Shown in pieces: positions 34,990-55,273 of a stretch of DNA of 64,000 nt; position 1 is the stretch's first letter, and each line of letters opens with the position of its first letter. Where the stretch lies: NCBI RefSeq assembly GCF_002854065.1, contig NZ_CP024147.1, one strand, 5' to 3'. The position numbers and the translations under genes were made by a program. The notes under the pieces are model-generated. The model was not told where the DNA came from. It ran no database searches and saw only the letters and a program-made list of their open reading frames with translations. Source of the DNA: Escherichia coli (GTDB lineage: Bacteria; Pseudomonadota; Gammaproteobacteria; Enterobacterales; Enterobacteriaceae).

Positions 34990-35111
34990 GCAGGTGAATG
35001 CAACGTCAAGCGATGGGCGTTGCGCTCCATATTGTCTTACTTCCTTTTTTGAATTACTGCATAGCACAATTGATTCGTACGACGCCGACTTTGATGAGTC
35101 GGCTTTTTTTT
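34990..35111 (+). ncRNA. fnrS: FnrS small RNA (FNR-activated, Hfq-dependent)
   Basis: Sequence gcaggtgaatgcaacgtcaagcgatgggcgttgcgctccatattgtc... recognised from memory as FnrS; ends in hairpin gacgccgactttgatgagtcggc plus T8; lies between zntB and dbpA as in K-12. Confidence 0.85.
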
Positions 35112-39693: not shown

Positions 39694-39920
39694 TGAATAA
39701 ATCCTTTAGTTATTTTATTTGCCTTTTATCCCCATTTCGGGGAGTGAAAACATCCTAAAGGAGAAGTTCAGTTAGCCGATAAATATCATTTGTTACGCCT
39801 TAAGTAAAACCTTAATCAAATAATTCCTCTGAAATGATAATAAGTCTGGTGAATGTATCGAAGATAATACATACAAAATAAAAATTATACTTTTTATTTT
39901 CTATACGTTATTCTGCGCGG

Positions 39921-40029
39921 GTTATATGCCTTTATTGTCACAGATTTTATTTTCTGTTGGGCCATTGCATTGCCACTGATTTTCCAACATATAAAAAGAC
40001 AAGCCCGAACAGTCGTCCGGGCTTTTTTT
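39921..40029 (+). ncRNA. micC: MicC small RNA (OmpC translational repressor)
   Basis: Sequence gttatatgcctttattgtcacagattttattttctgttgggccattgcattgccactg... recognised from memory; terminator gcccgaacagtcgtccgggc + T7; lies between ompN and pfo as in K-12. Confidence 0.85.
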
Positions 40030-40057
40030 AGAATTGGATAATCCTTATCCAGAGCAT

Positions 40058-48674: not shown

Positions 48675-49001
48675 ATGATGAAAAGAACATTACTCATAGC
48701 TGTATGGGCCATTGGCCTGATGAGCGACAGTGCAATGGCTTTAACCCTGAACGAAGCCAGAAGTCAGGGGCGGGTAGGTGAAACGCTTAACGGTTACCTG
48801 GTGGCGCTACAAACGGATGCCGAAACACAGGCATTAGTAAAAGATATTAATGAAGCTCGTAACCATAGTTATCAACAACTGGCAAAGCAAAATAATGTAT
48901 CCACTAAAGAGATAGCCAAACTGGCTGGACAAAAGCTTGTTGCTCGCGCGAAGTCGGGGCAATATGTTCAGGGAATTAATGGTAAATGGTTGCGCAAATA
49001 A
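48675..49001 (+). CDS. ydbL: Periplasmic protein YdbL (DUF1318)
   Basis: ORF track 48597..49001; start trimmed to MMKRTLLIAVWAIG (108 aa) with signal peptide. Confidence 0.85.
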   Translation: MMKRTLLIAVWAIGLMSDSAMALTLNEARSQGRVGETLNGYLVALQTDAETQALVKDINEARNHSYQQLAKQNNVSTKEIAKLAGQKLVARAKSGQYVQGINGKWLRK

Positions 49002-49408
49002 ATTATAGTTGGCTACAAAATGTATCTATTAATGATCTTTTACAGTATTTAAACTGACGTTAGCATGCTTAATTACCGTGGGTATTTCTACAAAAACCTT
49101 ATATATCCTTCCCTTAAATAACAAATCATTACCAATATATATGTAATCACAAAATATATATGCAGCGTCAATGAATTATTAGTGTGTTTTTGTTTTTTGT
49201 CGTTAATTTTTAGATTGAAGTGAGTTTTTTGTGGAATATAATTCCATCAACTGTTTTTTTGTATGCTTTTACTTGCCTGATTTTAATATTGATTTTGTGA
49301 ATTATATAAGCATTTCTTTATTGCTTATTTCACTATGAATATTTACTACGATTTATCTTCAAATTCTGCATGGCTTGTTACGCACGGTCTAGATCTAAGG
49401 AATTTTAT

Positions 49409-52400
49409 ATGCAAAGGAAAAAATTATTGTCTGTTTGTGTTGCCATGGCGTTAAGTAGCCAGACATGGGCTGCGGATACTTCAATACCCGACTCAACCGA
49501 AAAAACACGTAAGTCCAGTAAGATAACATGTCCGGCAAATATTCATTCCCTGAGCAAAGAGCAGCTAGAAAATTTATCCGCGGAGTGCAGAGAAAATAAA
49601 GATAGTGCAGTTTTACCATGGGCAGCTGCAGGTCTTGCTGCAGTAGCTACGGGAATTGCTATATATACCTTAAGTGACGATGACAATCACCACCATAATA
49701 ACTCCCCAGTTCCGGATGATGGCGGTGATACGCCAGTTCCGCCAGACGACGGCGGTGATACGCCGGTTCCGCCAGATGACGGCGGTGATACGCCGGTTCC
49801 GCCAGATGACGGCGGTGATACGCCAGTTCCGCCAGATGACGGCGGTGATACGCCAGTTCCGCCAGATGACGGCGATGATACGCCGGTTCCGCCAGATGAC
49901 GGCGGTGATACGCCAGTTCCGCCAGATGACGGCGGTGATACGCCAGTTCCGCCAGATGACGGCGGTGATACGCCGGTTCCACCAGATGATGGCGGTGATA
50001 CGCCAGTTCCAGACGACGGCGGTGATACGCCTGTTCCGCCAGACGATGGTGGCGATACCCCGGTTAAACACGATCCTGTCGTCTATAAAAATGACGTAAC
50101 CTGGGATCAGGACGCGAAAACCGTCAAAATTCGCGAAACCACCTTTACCTACAGCCAAAATGCCGATGGGAGTTACACCTTAACCGCGCCTGATGGCCTG
50201 ACGACGATAGTCAAGGGCTGGACAGTCCATGACGACAGCAACACCGTCATCTTTGATGGCGTAAATACGGCAGGTGGCATCACCTGGAGCTACGACGATG
50301 ATGGGCTCATCCATATCACTAAAGAGGCCGGTGTCGTTGTTGATGGCACAACCGGAACTGCGATTGATTTTGGTAATGCGATCATCACCGATCAGGGCGG
50401 CAATACGGCGCTGAATGGCGGTACTGTCATGACGGTTGAGGGTGACAACATCACCCTCAACAACGACGGTAAAACGACCGCCATCGGCGAGGGTTCGGTC
50501 GTTGGTATCCTTACTGGTGACGATATCACTATCAATAACAACGGCGAGACGGAAGTTGACGGCGGTACCGCAGTAATCATCAATGGCGATAATGCTACGC
50601 TGAACACTGCGGGCGACTCGACCATCACCAATGGTGGTACGGGTAGCCTTATCAATGGCGATAATGCGCGGGTCGATAATCAAGGTACCATGAGCGTTGA
50701 CGGTGAGAATTCCACTGGCTCGAAAATTGTCGGTGACGGTGCCACCATCAAACAGGAAGGCGACTTATACGTAAGCGGTGGTGCGCACGGTATTGACGTT
50801 GACGGCAATGATACGTTCGTTAGCAACAAAGGTAATATTACGGTCATCGAAGATAACTCTATTGGCATGCTGCTTGATGGTGATGGCGTCAGCGTGATCA
50901 ACATGGGCGACCTCAATGTTGGTCAGGCCGCAGCGGGTGAAAATGCCATTGGCATTCAGATCGACGGTGATAATGCGACATTTGTTAACGTTGGTGATAT
51001 TTCCGCGACCAATGCCGGAACCGGTGTCAGCGTTGCTGGGGATAAAGCTAATATTTCACTCGCGGGTGGGTTAGACGTTGGGGATTTCTCCACCGGTCTT
51101 GATGTCTCTGGCAATAATAACAACATGACGCTGGCGACTTATGAGCTGAATGTGACAGGGCAAAAAGCGACGGGTGTTAATGTTTCGGGTGATGGCAATA
51201 CGATTGAAATCGCAGGCAGCATTCTGGTTGATAAAGATCAGAAAGCCGATAATGCGCAACCTTACTTCTTTAATCCCTCAACCGGCGTAAATATCAGCGG
51301 TAATAACAATGACGTCACGCTGGATGGTCAGTTAACCGTTGTTGCTGATAGCGAAACCACTACGCGTTCCTATGCAAGTTACGACGGTGCTCAGGAGCAC
51401 ATTGCGGGTATTGTTATTGCTGGCGATGACAATACCTTCACGCTTAATGGCGGTGTCCATTTTGTCGGTGAAAAAAATGTCATGGATGATGGCTCAAAAC
51501 CTGCCGCATCTCGTCGTGGTATCGGAGATACACCGCTTATGAGCGTTGATGGGCATTCCTCAGTCTACCTCAATGGTGAGTCAACCATCAGCGGTGAGTT
51601 CCCGCTGGGTTTCGAAAATCTCATTCAACTGAGTAATGGCGCGGAGCTGGAGATTGGCGCTGACGCAACGTTTGATATGAGTGATGTGGATTCTTTCACT
51701 TATTATTATCGTGTAGCGTTATCCACTATTAGTATTGATTATGGTGCGAAGGCGACAAACAACGGTGAAGTGGAACTGAAAAATATCGGTTTTGCGGCTG
51801 CCTGGAATAAAGATTCAACGGTAATCAATAACGGATCCATTGGCCTGGCGATGTACGATTTTGGTACCGACCCGGCACCAAAAGTCTTTGACGTTGAATA
51901 CGGTGGGATTGGCGTTAACAATGGTACCATGACCACCAAAATGATGAATCAGCACAGTGTGCTGAATTATCCGGCAGAGTGGAACTTGTCTGATGGTACC
52001 TCTTTCAATAACAAGGCATTAGGGCTGACAGGTATGCTTGCCAGCTACTCGTCATCCATTCTGAACGGCGAAACGGGCATTATTGATATGTATGGCCGTG
52101 GCAGTGTAGGGATGCTAGCCATCGATAAATCAACCGCGGATAACGAAGGGCAAATCACCCTGGATACGCTGTGGGTTGATGAAAATGATGAAACATCGCT
52201 GCGTAATAATGTTGCAAATAGCACGGCGAAAGATTTCGGTGTGGGAATGGCTTCAGGTACCGATGCCTATAATGGGGCATTAACTAAAGCCACGGCAACC
52301 AACCACGAGAATGGTGTGATTACTGTCTACAACGCCGGTGCGGGGATGGCGGCGTATGGGAATACTAATACGGTCATTAACCAGGGAACCATCAACCTGG

Positions 52401-55273: not shown

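Follow-up and report, generated by a model that had tools for sequence, protein, structure and literature searches.

The ydbA locus of Escherichia coli raises the question of how a protein that must be exported comes to carry a segment as hydrophobic as a transmembrane helix near its N-terminus, and what becomes of that segment. In the stretch of DNA analysed here (the window, 64,000 nucleotides of contig NZ_CP024147.1), ydbA is a single gene, and the original prediction drew attention to a membrane-length segment behind the signal peptide of its product as atypical for type Va passengers. We agree with that description, and the segment, its surroundings and its possible fates are examined below.

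The ydbA locus and its product

The predicted uninterrupted reading frame was recovered and is open throughout, although it encodes 1954 aa and a stop and the 1966 codons first reported were a miscount. The longest open reading frame begins at ATG 49370 and would encode 1967 aa. However, the start was placed at ATG 49409 because an AAGGA Shine-Dalgarno sequence (49397-49401) lies 7 nt upstream of it, RefSeq PGAP uses the equivalent start in E. coli strain XJ34 [WP_158225522.1, 1954 aa], and all homologues begin with M-Q/K-R/K-K. The features of the locus are as follows.

49002..49408, + strand: AT-rich ydbL-ydbA intergenic region, with the Shine-Dalgarno sequence and a sigma-70-like site
49409..55273, + strand: ydbA coding sequence, 5865 nt, for a type Va autotransporter of the BigA/YdbA family
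49409..49471, + strand: predicted Sec signal peptide, residues 1-21, MQRKKLLSVCVAMALSSQTWA, with an n/h/c layout and a putative cleavage site
49472..49606, + strand: mature N-terminal segment, residues 22-66, CPANIHSLSKEQLENLSAEC, with a C41-x18-C60 loop
49607..49672, + strand: hydrophobic Gly/Ala-rich segment (H2), residues 67-88, AVLPWAAAGLAAVATGIAIYTL
49673..49705, + strand: Asp/Asn/His cluster, residues 89-99, SDDDNHHHNNS
49706..50077, + strand: acidic Pro/Gly spacer, residues 100-223, twelve PDDGGDTPVP units
50078..50320, + strand: BigA_N beta-barrel domain, residues 224-304 (Pfam PF25784, E = 5.5e-32; AlphaFold2 pLDDT 88-95)
50321..53974, + strand: G/N/A/T/V-rich repetitive passenger, residues 305-1522, assigned by composition
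53975..54226, + strand: BigA_beta sandwich domain, residues 1523-1606 (Pfam PF25783, E = 6.4e-24)
54593..55270, + strand: autotransporter beta-domain, residues 1729-1954 (Pfam PF03797, E = 8e-18, the match covering 1729-1925)

Upstream of the gene, GC is 0.26 for 49000-49299. The sigma-70-like sequence TTGAAG-16-TATAAT at 49215-49242 matches at 10 of 12 positions, and the scan gave no excess of such sites over shuffled sequence. The gene order is ydbH-ynbE-ydbL, ydbA, pdxI-ydbD, in which the adjacency of ydbH-ynbE-ydbL reflects only the absence of the fea/tynA/paa cluster. No conserved partner gene was found, the neighbours varying among Escherichia, Citrobacter and [Enterobacter] lignolyticus.

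It is near certain that the locus is a full-length E. coli ydbA allele encoding a classical type Va member of the BigA/YdbA family, because the Pfam domains BigA_N, BigA_beta and Autotransporter, the NCBIfam auto_BigA profile, synteny and a nucleotide identity of 97-98% with annotated E. coli ydbA copies all point to it. The ydbA assignment and the architecture originally proposed stand, as all of the listed parts were found and the Pfam domain search agrees with them. Domain order and location between ydbL and pdxI are the same as in the BigA/YdbA family, which includes Salmonella BigA and K-12 ydbA (b4492). The score against NCBIfam NF033178 (auto_BigA) is 1077 bits, below the curated cut-off of 3400 bits for BigA proper, and the protein is a BigA homologue belonging to a ydbA paralogue or orthologue group, not BigA itself.

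The expected Gly/Asn/Thr/Val-rich passenger is also rich in Ala and includes a close pair of cysteines, C1056 and C1061. In homologues, BigA_3rd and BigA_4th domains are listed in the precomputed Pfam annotation, and the AlphaFold2 model of one homologue predicts the first passenger rungs as beta-strands with pLDDT >90. The C-terminal beta-domain ends in Phe, as foreseen (...MLNFKKTF); this residue, the aromatic of the beta-signal, is kept in all full-length homologues, and a C-terminal WKEDG.SDKG...F pattern is conserved across the family. YdbA is a candidate adhesin, and we know of no experimental characterisation of BigA/YdbA proteins.

The statement that K-12 ydbA is split by IS2 and IS30 proved correct, b4492 being a pseudogene interrupted by IS2D and IS30C. 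The O157:H7 gene is also broken, into two CDSs, whereas the window copy is uninterrupted. There is nothing new or rare about an intact ydbA. The full-length gene was found in ~42% of phylogroup A strains in a published survey (PMC4951805), so that its patchy distribution as intact gene or pseudogene is already on record, and intact 1954-aa copies are annotated in RefSeq. Pseudogenes occur in many strains, and the gene is therefore dispensable.

A conserved N-terminal module

The N-terminal part of the protein is a conserved module. Behind the signal peptide come a C-x18-C loop, a Gly/Ala-rich stretch of 17-22 residues that carries no charge, a cluster of Asp, Asn and His, and an acidic Pro/Gly spacer, after which BigA_N begins. 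All 28 examined members with an intact 5' end, from ~13 named Enterobacterales genera, carry it. At the 50% identity level, 44 clusters matched residues 1-99, and in each the match lay at the N-terminal end of the protein. With the C-terminal barrel alone, 39 loci were found; those broken within the gene were left out of module scoring, and the complete module is present in 14 of the 15 in which the frame is open from the barrel back past the start. In the fifteenth, from Enterobacillus tribolii, the hydrophobic segment and spacer are there and the signal peptide and Cys loop are not recognisable. The hydrophobic segment is a hallmark of BigA/YdbA proteins across Enterobacterales and not a peculiarity of one strain, and it is seen in the K-12-type allele too, the module of which is only ~47% identical to that of the window allele. 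Searches for relatives of the module in solved structures, NCBIfam and Pfam gave only noise, except for the full-length NCBIfam BigA profile, which itself spans the module (positions 25-103). No description of the module was found in database models or the literature.

The signal peptide consists of an n-region (RKK) and an h-region (LLSVCVAMAL), with T-W-A and then A-D at the predicted cleavage site. It is near-invariant among Escherichia alleles, its 21 residues being the most conserved part of the N-terminus, and the Ala at -1 is kept in nearly all aligned homologues. Assignment as a lipoprotein via Cys10, with a NalP/SphB1-type lipobox of the form [LVI][ASTVI][GAS]C behind a long enough h-region, was rejected: residues 7-10 read L-S-V-C with Val at -1, the leader of only 9 residues before the Cys is too short, and the loss of Cys10 from several homologues (LLSVGIAL, FIAVAVAV, LISIAIAL) also argues against a lipobox. 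The two-cysteine segment that follows had been put at ~50 residues. Cys41 and Cys60 are present, but the segment is 45 residues long (22-66). Equivalents of both cysteines are invariant in aligned homologues, 18 residues apart in 25 of the 26 members that match the Cys-loop pattern and 20 apart in the remaining one. AlphaFold2 predicts short helices in this segment, with pLDDT 67-84.

The hydrophobic stretch that had been given as 22 residues is real, although the string quoted for it has 20 residues and the run free of D, E, K, R, N, Q and H covers 24 (66-89). Its maximum on the Kyte-Doolittle scale over 19 residues, 1.86, is the highest in the protein (the runner-up window reaches 1.23), and H2 is the sole membrane-length apolar stretch. 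A position-dependent formula, the parameters of which were only sanity-checked, gives an estimated insertion energy of -0.59 kcal/mol, with a family range of -1.3 to +1.4. The view that H2 is not hydrophobic enough was dropped, the additive Hessa scale giving +2.5 kcal/mol and the position-dependent formula -0.59.

Identity within H2 is low between alleles, with ~7 of 20 residues shared by K-12 and the window. Among 24 anchored homologues from many genera, a block of 17 consecutive columns is free of D, E, K, R, N, Q and H, and the flanks are >50% polar or charged. The distance from the Cys loop is conserved, and a Trp and a Gly are near-invariant. Most non-Escherichia homologues have W-x-W at the start of H2, where the window allele has LPW. 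Purifying selection on the physicochemical character of H2 is indicated by the charge-free columns, the kept position, the Trp and Gly and the conserved D/N/H cluster behind it. In AlphaFold2 models H2 has pLDDT 28-44 with no secondary structure and no docking, against 88-96 for the neighbouring domains, and the models suggest that it stands apart from the soluble fold. Two AlphaFold2 runs, one of them on a homologue with an 18-residue linker, led us to reject a role for H2 as a structural cap or docked helix.

The DDDNHHH string reported behind H2 lies at residues 90-96, and His is ~14-fold enriched in the 15 residues after H2 (mean 2.0 vs 0.14 expected, 28 homologues). The twelve PDDGGDTPVP repeats were also recovered, Tandem Repeats Finder giving a 30-bp unit in 11.8 copies at 49715-50065. 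Residues 89-223 include 1 K/R vs 41 D/E; likewise, family members have 0-1 K/R in the 15 residues after H2 and 0-1 in the entire spacer. Spacer length ranges from 18 to 161 aa across the family. In other E. coli strains the lengths of the matched stretches often differ by multiples of 30 bp, and these lengths suggest that the copy number of the spacer repeat varies among strains.

Fate of the hydrophobic segment

H2 must have both ends outside the cytoplasm, because oxidising conditions are required for the Cys pair that precedes it and the barrel that follows it has to arrive at the outer membrane. A Kyte-Doolittle scan of the window protein found no further hydrophobic segment able to restart translocation. 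The membrane tether suggested at first, taken as a helix spanning the inner membrane, did not survive this analysis, because with such a topology the passenger and barrel could not be exported. An exported and unanchored H2 would be expected instead, because its ends are extracytoplasmic, its insertion energy is like that of VacA, and 0-1 K/R follow it.

That a type Va protein can have its hydrophobic N-terminal segment exported is known from VacA of H. pylori, the segment of which passes through Sec and type Va secretion (PMC4926140). As in YdbA, the segment is uncharged, Gly/Ala-rich and of membrane length, lies near the mature N-terminus of a type Va passenger, is the only one of its kind, and must pass both Sec and the outer membrane, and the estimates of insertion energy practically coincide, at -0.57 kcal/mol for VacA and -0.59 kcal/mol for H2. 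However, the VacA segment occupies residues 1-32, the extreme N-terminus, with three tandem GXXXG motifs that channel formation requires, whereas H2 is found 45 residues into the mature protein, behind the disulphide loop, and in the window allele has no GXXXG, Gly75 and Gly82 being 7 residues apart. VacA is also a released toxin, whereas YdbA shows no sign of release, and the window protein has no Pfam VacA match. Small-xxx-small strings occur in some homologues (e.g. WGWVAGGIAALATGVAIGI). The family-wide helix-face periodicity of small residues in H2 at 90-100 degrees was not above permutation (p = 0.22-0.54), and a VacA-like GXXXG packing interface is therefore unsupported. A glycine-zipper or GXXXG face, read by eye as a G-x3-A-x3-G-x3-G stripe, was rejected, as composition alone accounts for the stripe.

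Three other known elements were compared. The ESPR of EspP, Hbp and AIDA-I (Pfam PF13018), a proposed modulator of inner-membrane translocation (PMC2805444), likewise adds to the N-terminus of very large type V proteins an element that brings a second hydrophobic region. However, it sits ahead of the classical h-region and is lost when the signal peptide is cleaved off, whereas in YdbA a complete 21-residue signal peptide comes first and H2 lies 45 residues past the predicted cleavage site; PF13018 had no match at E <= 10 in residues 1-1000. TonB shares with YdbA a hydrophobic helix (-0.06 kcal/mol) followed directly by a Pro-rich extended spacer, but the TonB helix is an uncleaved N-in signal anchor, whereas that of YdbA is preceded by a predicted cleavable signal peptide and a disulphide loop. 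A spanning topology would strand the passenger of YdbA in the cytoplasm, and the length of the YdbA spacer (18-161 aa) is unconstrained. Compared with the segments of SlyB (+2.3 kcal/mol) and OsmB (+2.6 kcal/mol), H2 is ~3 kcal/mol more hydrophobic, and the lack of a Pfam Gly-zipper match places the protein outside the SlyB/OsmB type.

Most likely, H2 is an exported segment that comes to rest at the distal tip of the adhesin, where it would have the presumptive function described below. Signal peptidase I would cleave after Ala21, and the Cys41-Cys60 pair would be oxidised in the periplasm. Only marginally hydrophobic and followed by acidic sequence, H2 would not act as a stop-transfer sequence and would pass SecYEG like the remainder of the chain. 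The C-terminal barrel would insert into the outer membrane, and the passenger would be secreted from its C-terminal to its N-terminal end, so that the module would leave last and be placed at the distal tip on a flexible acidic tether. There H2 could insert into membranes or hydrophobic surfaces, or self-associate, in a role comparable to that of the hydrophobic N-terminus of VacA. A location at the tip is preferred to a periplasmic ruler because the spacer varies from 18 to 161 aa and repeat number apparently differs among strains. For the whole mechanism, from cleavage through export of H2 to a membrane- or surface-inserting or self-associating segment at the distal tip, we estimate a probability of about 0.4. 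Against export, a near-zero insertion energy could send a sizeable fraction into the inner membrane. Disulphide-bonded N-terminal regions are reported to stall autotransporter secretion (PMC3419692), and the 18-residue loop could therefore keep the module in the periplasm. Against the tip location, a permanently exposed hydrophobic helix would tend to aggregate. The negative periodicity test and the dispensability of the gene also count against the proposed mechanism.

An inner-membrane stop-transfer anchor, with the N-terminus out, the C-terminus in, and passenger and barrel in the cytoplasm, could hold all or part of the protein, whether for regulation, as a dead end or as a target of intramembrane proteolysis. 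The estimate for H2 (-0.59 kcal/mol) resembles that for the TonB anchor (-0.06), the Kyte-Doolittle value of 1.86 exceeds the usual threshold of 1.6, and standard predictors would probably call a transmembrane helix. However, such an anchor would keep the barrel from the outer membrane, which clashes with the conservation of the full-length autotransporter; the acidic C-terminal flank, with 0-1 K/R in all members, goes against the positive-inside rule, the equally hydrophobic VacA segment is exported, and this topology is highly improbable. The earlier suggestion of an extended signal supposes that H2 is the real export signal and that the residues upstream are the artefact of a mis-called start or an ESPR-like extension. 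Small-x-small triplets near the C-terminal end of H2 in many homologues, and an N-terminal flank richer in K/R than the C-terminal one, would fit, but such triplets are expected from Ala/Gly-rich composition alone. Moreover, the Shine-Dalgarno sequence 7 nt before ATG 49409 and the identical PGAP start support the assigned start, the first 21 residues are the most conserved part of the N-terminus, with position -1 occupied by Ala in almost every aligned homologue, an oxidising environment for residues 22-66 is implied by their invariant Cys pair, that stretch contains no Met, and no Pfam ESPR match was obtained at E <= 10. The suggestion is effectively refuted, its chance of being right next to nil. 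H2 may, as also suggested, lie in a cleaved pro-region. A role confined to biogenesis is unlikely: having crossed the inner membrane, H2 and the Cys loop would for a time keep the N-terminus on the periplasmic side of that membrane or bound to a chaperone (SurA, Skp or DegP), so that the ~1900-residue passenger stays secretion-competent until the barrel emerges, as a functional analogue of the ESPR with no surface role. These are very large proteins (1300-2100 aa) with the N-terminus in the periplasm long before the barrel, their short classical signal peptide has no ESPR, and the hydrophobicity of H2 is marginal. Aromatic-x-aromatic is a preferred binding motif of SurA, and W-x-W starts H2 in most non-Escherichia homologues, but the window allele has LPW instead. 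A single helix cannot span the inner membrane if its two ends are both periplasmic, and the tether would have to be interfacial; the invariant Cys pair, His cluster and variable acidic spacer are also left unexplained.

In programmed periplasmic retention, the oxidised Cys loop and H2 would be unable to pass the outer-membrane pore and would plug it from the periplasmic side, while the spacer runs through the barrel. Conceptually this is akin to the N-terminal retention module of LapA-type adhesins or to CdiA, the secretion of which is arrested. Conservation of the Cys pair and its 18-residue spacing is in keeping with it, the Pro-rich unstructured spacer could occupy the pore, and disulphide-bonded N-termini are reported to stall autotransporter secretion, the stalled part being removed by DegP (PMC3419692). 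However, spacers of 18-32 residues are too short to reach from the barrel to the far end of a >1000-residue passenger if this is an extended rod, both passenger ends would need the same pore, and the other Cys pair (1056/1061) has the usual close, secretion-compatible spacing. Such retention has no known precedent in type Va secretion, and we regard it as quite unlikely. That H2 has no specific function, and is either tolerated low-complexity Ala/Gly sequence or an ancestral remnant, for example of an old fusion junction, is very unlikely. The small-residue pattern has no significant periodicity, H2 is unstructured in AlphaFold2, the gene is often pseudogenised, and identity between the K-12 and window segments is low (~7/20), all of which would favour this view. 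Nevertheless, 17 columns without D, E, K, R, N, Q or H in 24 sequences between flanks that are >50% polar or charged, a constant placement behind the Cys loop, a Trp and a Gly that hardly vary, and conservation of the D/N/H cluster after H2 all speak against it.

Significance of the module for the BigA/YdbA family

The gene itself is nothing new, as it is annotated in RefSeq and Pfam and NCBIfam models of the family exist. What is worth keeping is that a protein that must be exported has a strictly conserved transmembrane-like segment, and that an invariant disulphide loop and a His/Asp cluster accompany it. Small, clearly bounded and easily mutated, the module lends itself to asking how hydrophobic a segment of an exported type Va passenger can be and what role the distal tip of an adhesin plays.

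A more specific form of the exported tip, which we consider unlikely, is that the Cys loop, apolar segment and Asp/His cluster make up a membrane-inserting "harpoon" on an acidic tether, directed at the membranes of host or neighbouring cells with pH or metal, acting on the Asp/His cluster, as a possible trigger. The periplasmic retention described above would be similarly novel. If the harpoon were real, BigA/YdbA proteins would be membrane-anchoring and not purely receptor-binding adhesins, and the VacA principle would extend to a whole family of enterobacterial surface proteins.

Location and reading frame of ydbA

The window carries ydbA, for an autotransporter of the BigA/YdbA family (type Va), with ydbH-ynbE-ydbL upstream, pdxI (ydbC)-ydbD downstream, and flanks sharing 98.5-99% identity with E. 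coli chromosomes. The feaR/feaB/tynA/paa cluster, located between ydbL and ydbA in K-12, is missing at this junction (49002-49408), and ydbA directly follows ydbH-ynbE-ydbL. XJ34, TUM13936 and O157:H7 likewise lack the cluster here. This agrees with a published account of a 'region of genomic heterogeneity' (PMC4951805). The 400 bp intergenic region upstream of ydbA is 26% GC and includes one good sigma-70-like match, the scan overall being not enriched relative to shuffled sequence. No Rfam family matched at the ydbA locus, and no neighbouring gene of ydbA homologues is conserved across the genera compared.

As originally predicted, ydbA is uninterrupted, and the K-12 gene is a pseudogene, with IS2D and IS30C inserted in it. 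The single frame runs from the ATG at 49409 to the stop codon at 55271-55273 (+ strand, 5865 nt) and predicts 1954 residues, the 1966 codons first reported being a miscount. The longest open reading frame begins at the ATG at 49370 and would give 1967 aa; its additional sequence, MACYARSRSKEFY, shows no conservation among homologues. AAGGA (49397-49401) is located 7 nt 5′ of the ATG at 49409, and the RefSeq PGAP start of the intact gene in XJ34 (WP_158225522.1, 5865 nt) is at the equivalent position. The probability that the start is mis-called, or that the second hydrophobic segment belongs to an extended signal, is negligible.

A comparison with three further E. coli chromosomes shows a 768 bp insertion in ydbD (57716-58483). 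Its open reading frames, one coding for 91 aa (57771-58046) and one for 167 aa (57965-58468), have the sizes and layout of IS1 insA and insB. An IS1 therefore seems to interrupt ydbD here, with ydbA itself intact. Elsewhere in the window, the sRNA genes fnrS (34990-35107) and micC (39918-40038) are only ∼4.9 kb apart, and the Rac prophage, which lies between them in K-12, appears to be missing from this site.

Features of ydbA and YdbA (+ strand; window positions where given)
49409-55273: ydbA, 1954 residues
Signal peptide: 21 residues, N-terminus
Cys-containing segment: 45 residues after the signal peptide, with Cys41 and Cys60
49607-49672: H2, the apolar Gly/Ala-rich stretch, residues 67-88; run free of D/E/K/R/N/Q/H, 24 residues (66-89); string first reported, 20 residues
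DDDNHHH: after the apolar stretch
49673-49717: His-rich Asp/Asn cluster, residues 89-103
49715-50065: twelve PDDGGDTPVP units, 30 bp x 11.8 copies
BigA_N (Pfam PF25784): residues 224-304, E = 5.5e-32
Passenger: 14% Gly, 12% Asn, Ala/Thr/Val 8-9% each
BigA_beta (Pfam PF25783): residues 1523-1606, E = 6.4e-24
Autotransporter beta-domain (Pfam PF03797): residues 1729-1925, E = 8e-18
C-terminus: ...KKTF

Every element of the predicted architecture was found in the 1954-residue protein, leaving the codon count as the only error in the original prediction. YdbA scores 1077 bits against NCBIfam auto_BigA, well short of the 3400-bit cut-off, and is therefore a homologue of BigA and not BigA itself.

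Alleles of ydbA in E. coli

An intact copy of ydbA is not unusual. A search of 5426 complete E. coli genomes found 367 in which a single place covers at least 80% of the query and, among the best matches, several are annotated as one intact CDS (XJ34, XJ6-3, LH50-c, A16 and others). The gene is split or IS-interrupted in O157:H7, O55:H7, TUM13936 and K-12. In a pan-genome study, about 42% of phylogroup A strains carried full-length ydbA (PMC4951805). The gene thus belongs to a known autotransporter family, and as an intact allele it is known, already annotated and fairly common.

The exact allele of the window is absent from the complete genomes searched, the best full-length match being 97.6% identical. 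Only about 47% identity is shared with the K-12-type allele in the N-terminal module. BLAST matches to K-12-type clusters are 30-33% identical over the first 450-700 residues and 61-73% in the C-terminal part, which corresponds to the late passenger through to the barrel. A third allele at the same locus, P0028, shares 47% identity with the window protein in its N-terminal half and is near-identical at the C-terminus. Judged from these comparisons (window 49409-52500 for the divergent part), the locus is deeply polymorphic, with deeply divergent alleles within E. coli, a pattern resembling that of a surface protein under mosaic or diversifying evolution. The matched stretch is 6051, 6171 or 6201 bp, among other lengths, in other strains; many of these lengths lie multiples of 30 bp apart, pointing to a repeat number that varies between strains.

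In public databases the family N-terminus is mostly represented by fragments of 100-180 aa, many on ∼30 kb contigs. Many of the latter appear to end inside the repeats, as expected if 30 bp repeats break short-read assemblies. Some entries are misleadingly named 'porin' or 'EntS/YbdA MFS transporter'; the second name apparently arose from confusing ydbA with ybdA.

Conservation of the N-terminal module

The predicted hydrophobic segment is present and is also conserved family-wide, VacA being its one good functional precedent. A phmmer search with residues 1-99 against 1.84 billion cluster representatives recovered 44 clusters, from E. coli, E. albertii, Citrobacter and [Enterobacter] lignolyticus among named sources, every match being at a protein N-terminus. 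Homology extends along the whole of the long members (1300-2070 aa), which also share the C-terminal barrel. To avoid circularity, members were also recovered with the barrel alone, giving 39 loci in 16 named genera, including Escherichia, Pseudocitrobacter, Citrobacter, Trabulsiella, Superficieibacter, Yokenella, Lelliottia, Huaxiibacter, Enterobacter, Salmonella (S. enterica subsp. diarizonae), Cedecea, Chimaeribacter, Rahnella, Enterobacillus and Budvicia. Loci broken inside the gene could not be scored; where the frame is unbroken from the barrel past the start, the complete module is present in 14 of 15. The exception, Enterobacillus tribolii, has H2 and the spacer but no recognisable signal peptide or Cys loop.

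The module opens with a signal peptide of the classical type, in which nearly all members have Ala at -1, followed by a Cys loop, C-P-x-[ND]-I-x-x-L-[ST]-x-E-[EQ]-x-x-K-L-P-x-x-C. Of 26 pattern-matched members, 25 have a Cys-Cys gap of 18 and one a gap of 20; by eye, the gap is 11 in one Rahnella. A short acidic stretch precedes H2 ([W]-x-W-[IV]-A-G-G-x-A-A..., 17-22 residues), and D, E, K, R, N, Q and H are missing from 17 consecutive columns in 24 anchored sequences. A His-rich Asp/Asn cluster (DDDNHHH, NDDDDHHH, ENNGGHSHHH or similar) directly follows in 23 of 28 homologues; the Asn/Asp/Gly/His cluster averages 2.0 His per 15 residues against 0.14 expected (∼14-fold). The spacer that then leads to the BigA_N barrel is acidic, rich in Pro and Gly and of low complexity, with 18 to 161 residues (0-1 Lys/Arg), and its repeat units differ by lineage (PDDGGDTPVP, PDDGGNVTP, DPV, PDPT, GDNGG, PPxP).

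The module matched nothing in Pfam or PDB sequences, and in NCBIfam only the full-length BigA profile (positions 25-103). In the literature searched, BigA and YdbA appear only as uncharacterised adhesin candidates or pseudogenes. On these alignments H2 is a real, strongly conserved hallmark of the family and, as far as that literature goes, has not been described before.

Topology and possible role of H2

H2 is the most hydrophobic 19-residue window of YdbA (Kyte-Doolittle 1.86; next 1.23), and a hydropathy scan of the whole protein found no third hydrophobic segment. As the Cys pair is invariant, residues 22-66 would reach an oxidising compartment, and the first hydrophobic region would therefore work as an export signal. 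Since export must also bring the barrel to the outer membrane, and there is no third segment, both ends of H2 should lie outside the cytoplasm, which would exclude a single inner-membrane-spanning helix for any functional molecule.

Insertion energies were estimated with the position-dependent Hessa 2007 formula, using parameters sanity-checked with poly-Ala and Leu/Ala test segments; a simple additive estimate of +2.5 kcal/mol for H2 was too lenient. Family H2 segments range from -1.3 to +1.4 kcal/mol by this formula.

Estimated insertion energies (kcal/mol)
LepB H1, ExbD: -2.6
YdbA H2, window: -0.59
VacA N-terminal segment: -0.57
TonB anchor: -0.06
SlyB, OsmB glycine-zipper segments: +2.3, +2.6

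Against these segments, the estimate places H2 exactly at the insertion threshold. All members have a strongly acidic downstream flank with 0-1 K/R, the reverse of what follows a stop-transfer segment, and a true stop-transfer anchor, incompatible with these charges and with function, is very improbable. The estimate for H2 equals that for the N-terminal hydrophobic region of VacA (Helicobacter pylori), also type Va, where 32 uncharged residues form the only membrane-length segment, are needed for channel formation and are exported by the same route (PMC4926140). The acidic flank and the VacA parallel favour export of H2. A glycine-zipper packing face is not supported, small-residue periodicity being not above permutation (p = 0.22-0.54).

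Type Va passengers emerge C-terminal end first and N-terminal end last, so the module would leave last and be found at the distal end of the passenger. In two AlphaFold2 runs, one of them on a Citrobacter amalonaticus homologue with an 18-residue linker, H2 had no secondary structure (pLDDT 28-44) and no contact with the confidently folded BigA_N or first beta-helix rungs (pLDDT 88-96); it is therefore not predicted to cap the soluble fold. The Cys loop forms short helices (pLDDT 67-84). A spacer of such variable length, apparently differing also between strains, speaks against a role that needs a fixed distance, for instance across the periplasm, and would fit a flexible surface tether. The preferred, still tentative reading (probability about 0.4) is that H2 is an exported distal-tip segment that contacts membranes or hydrophobic surfaces, or self-associates. 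More speculatively, the His/Asp cluster may be a metal- or pH-responsive element.

A role for H2 in biogenesis only, as a tether or chaperone handle, is unlikely, though it suits a ∼1900-residue passenger that has no ESPR (the extended signal peptide type of large autotransporters) and the W-x-W that opens H2 in most non-Escherichia homologues. Secretion stalled by disulphide-bonded N-terminal regions has been reported (PMC3419692), and the module could likewise be a periplasmic stopper, but the very short spacers of some members make this distinctly unlikely. That H2 has no specific function is improbable, as D, E, K, R, N, Q and H are strictly kept out of it.

The gene itself adds little; it would gain interest only should the module turn out to be a tip that inserts into membranes or a device for programmed retention.
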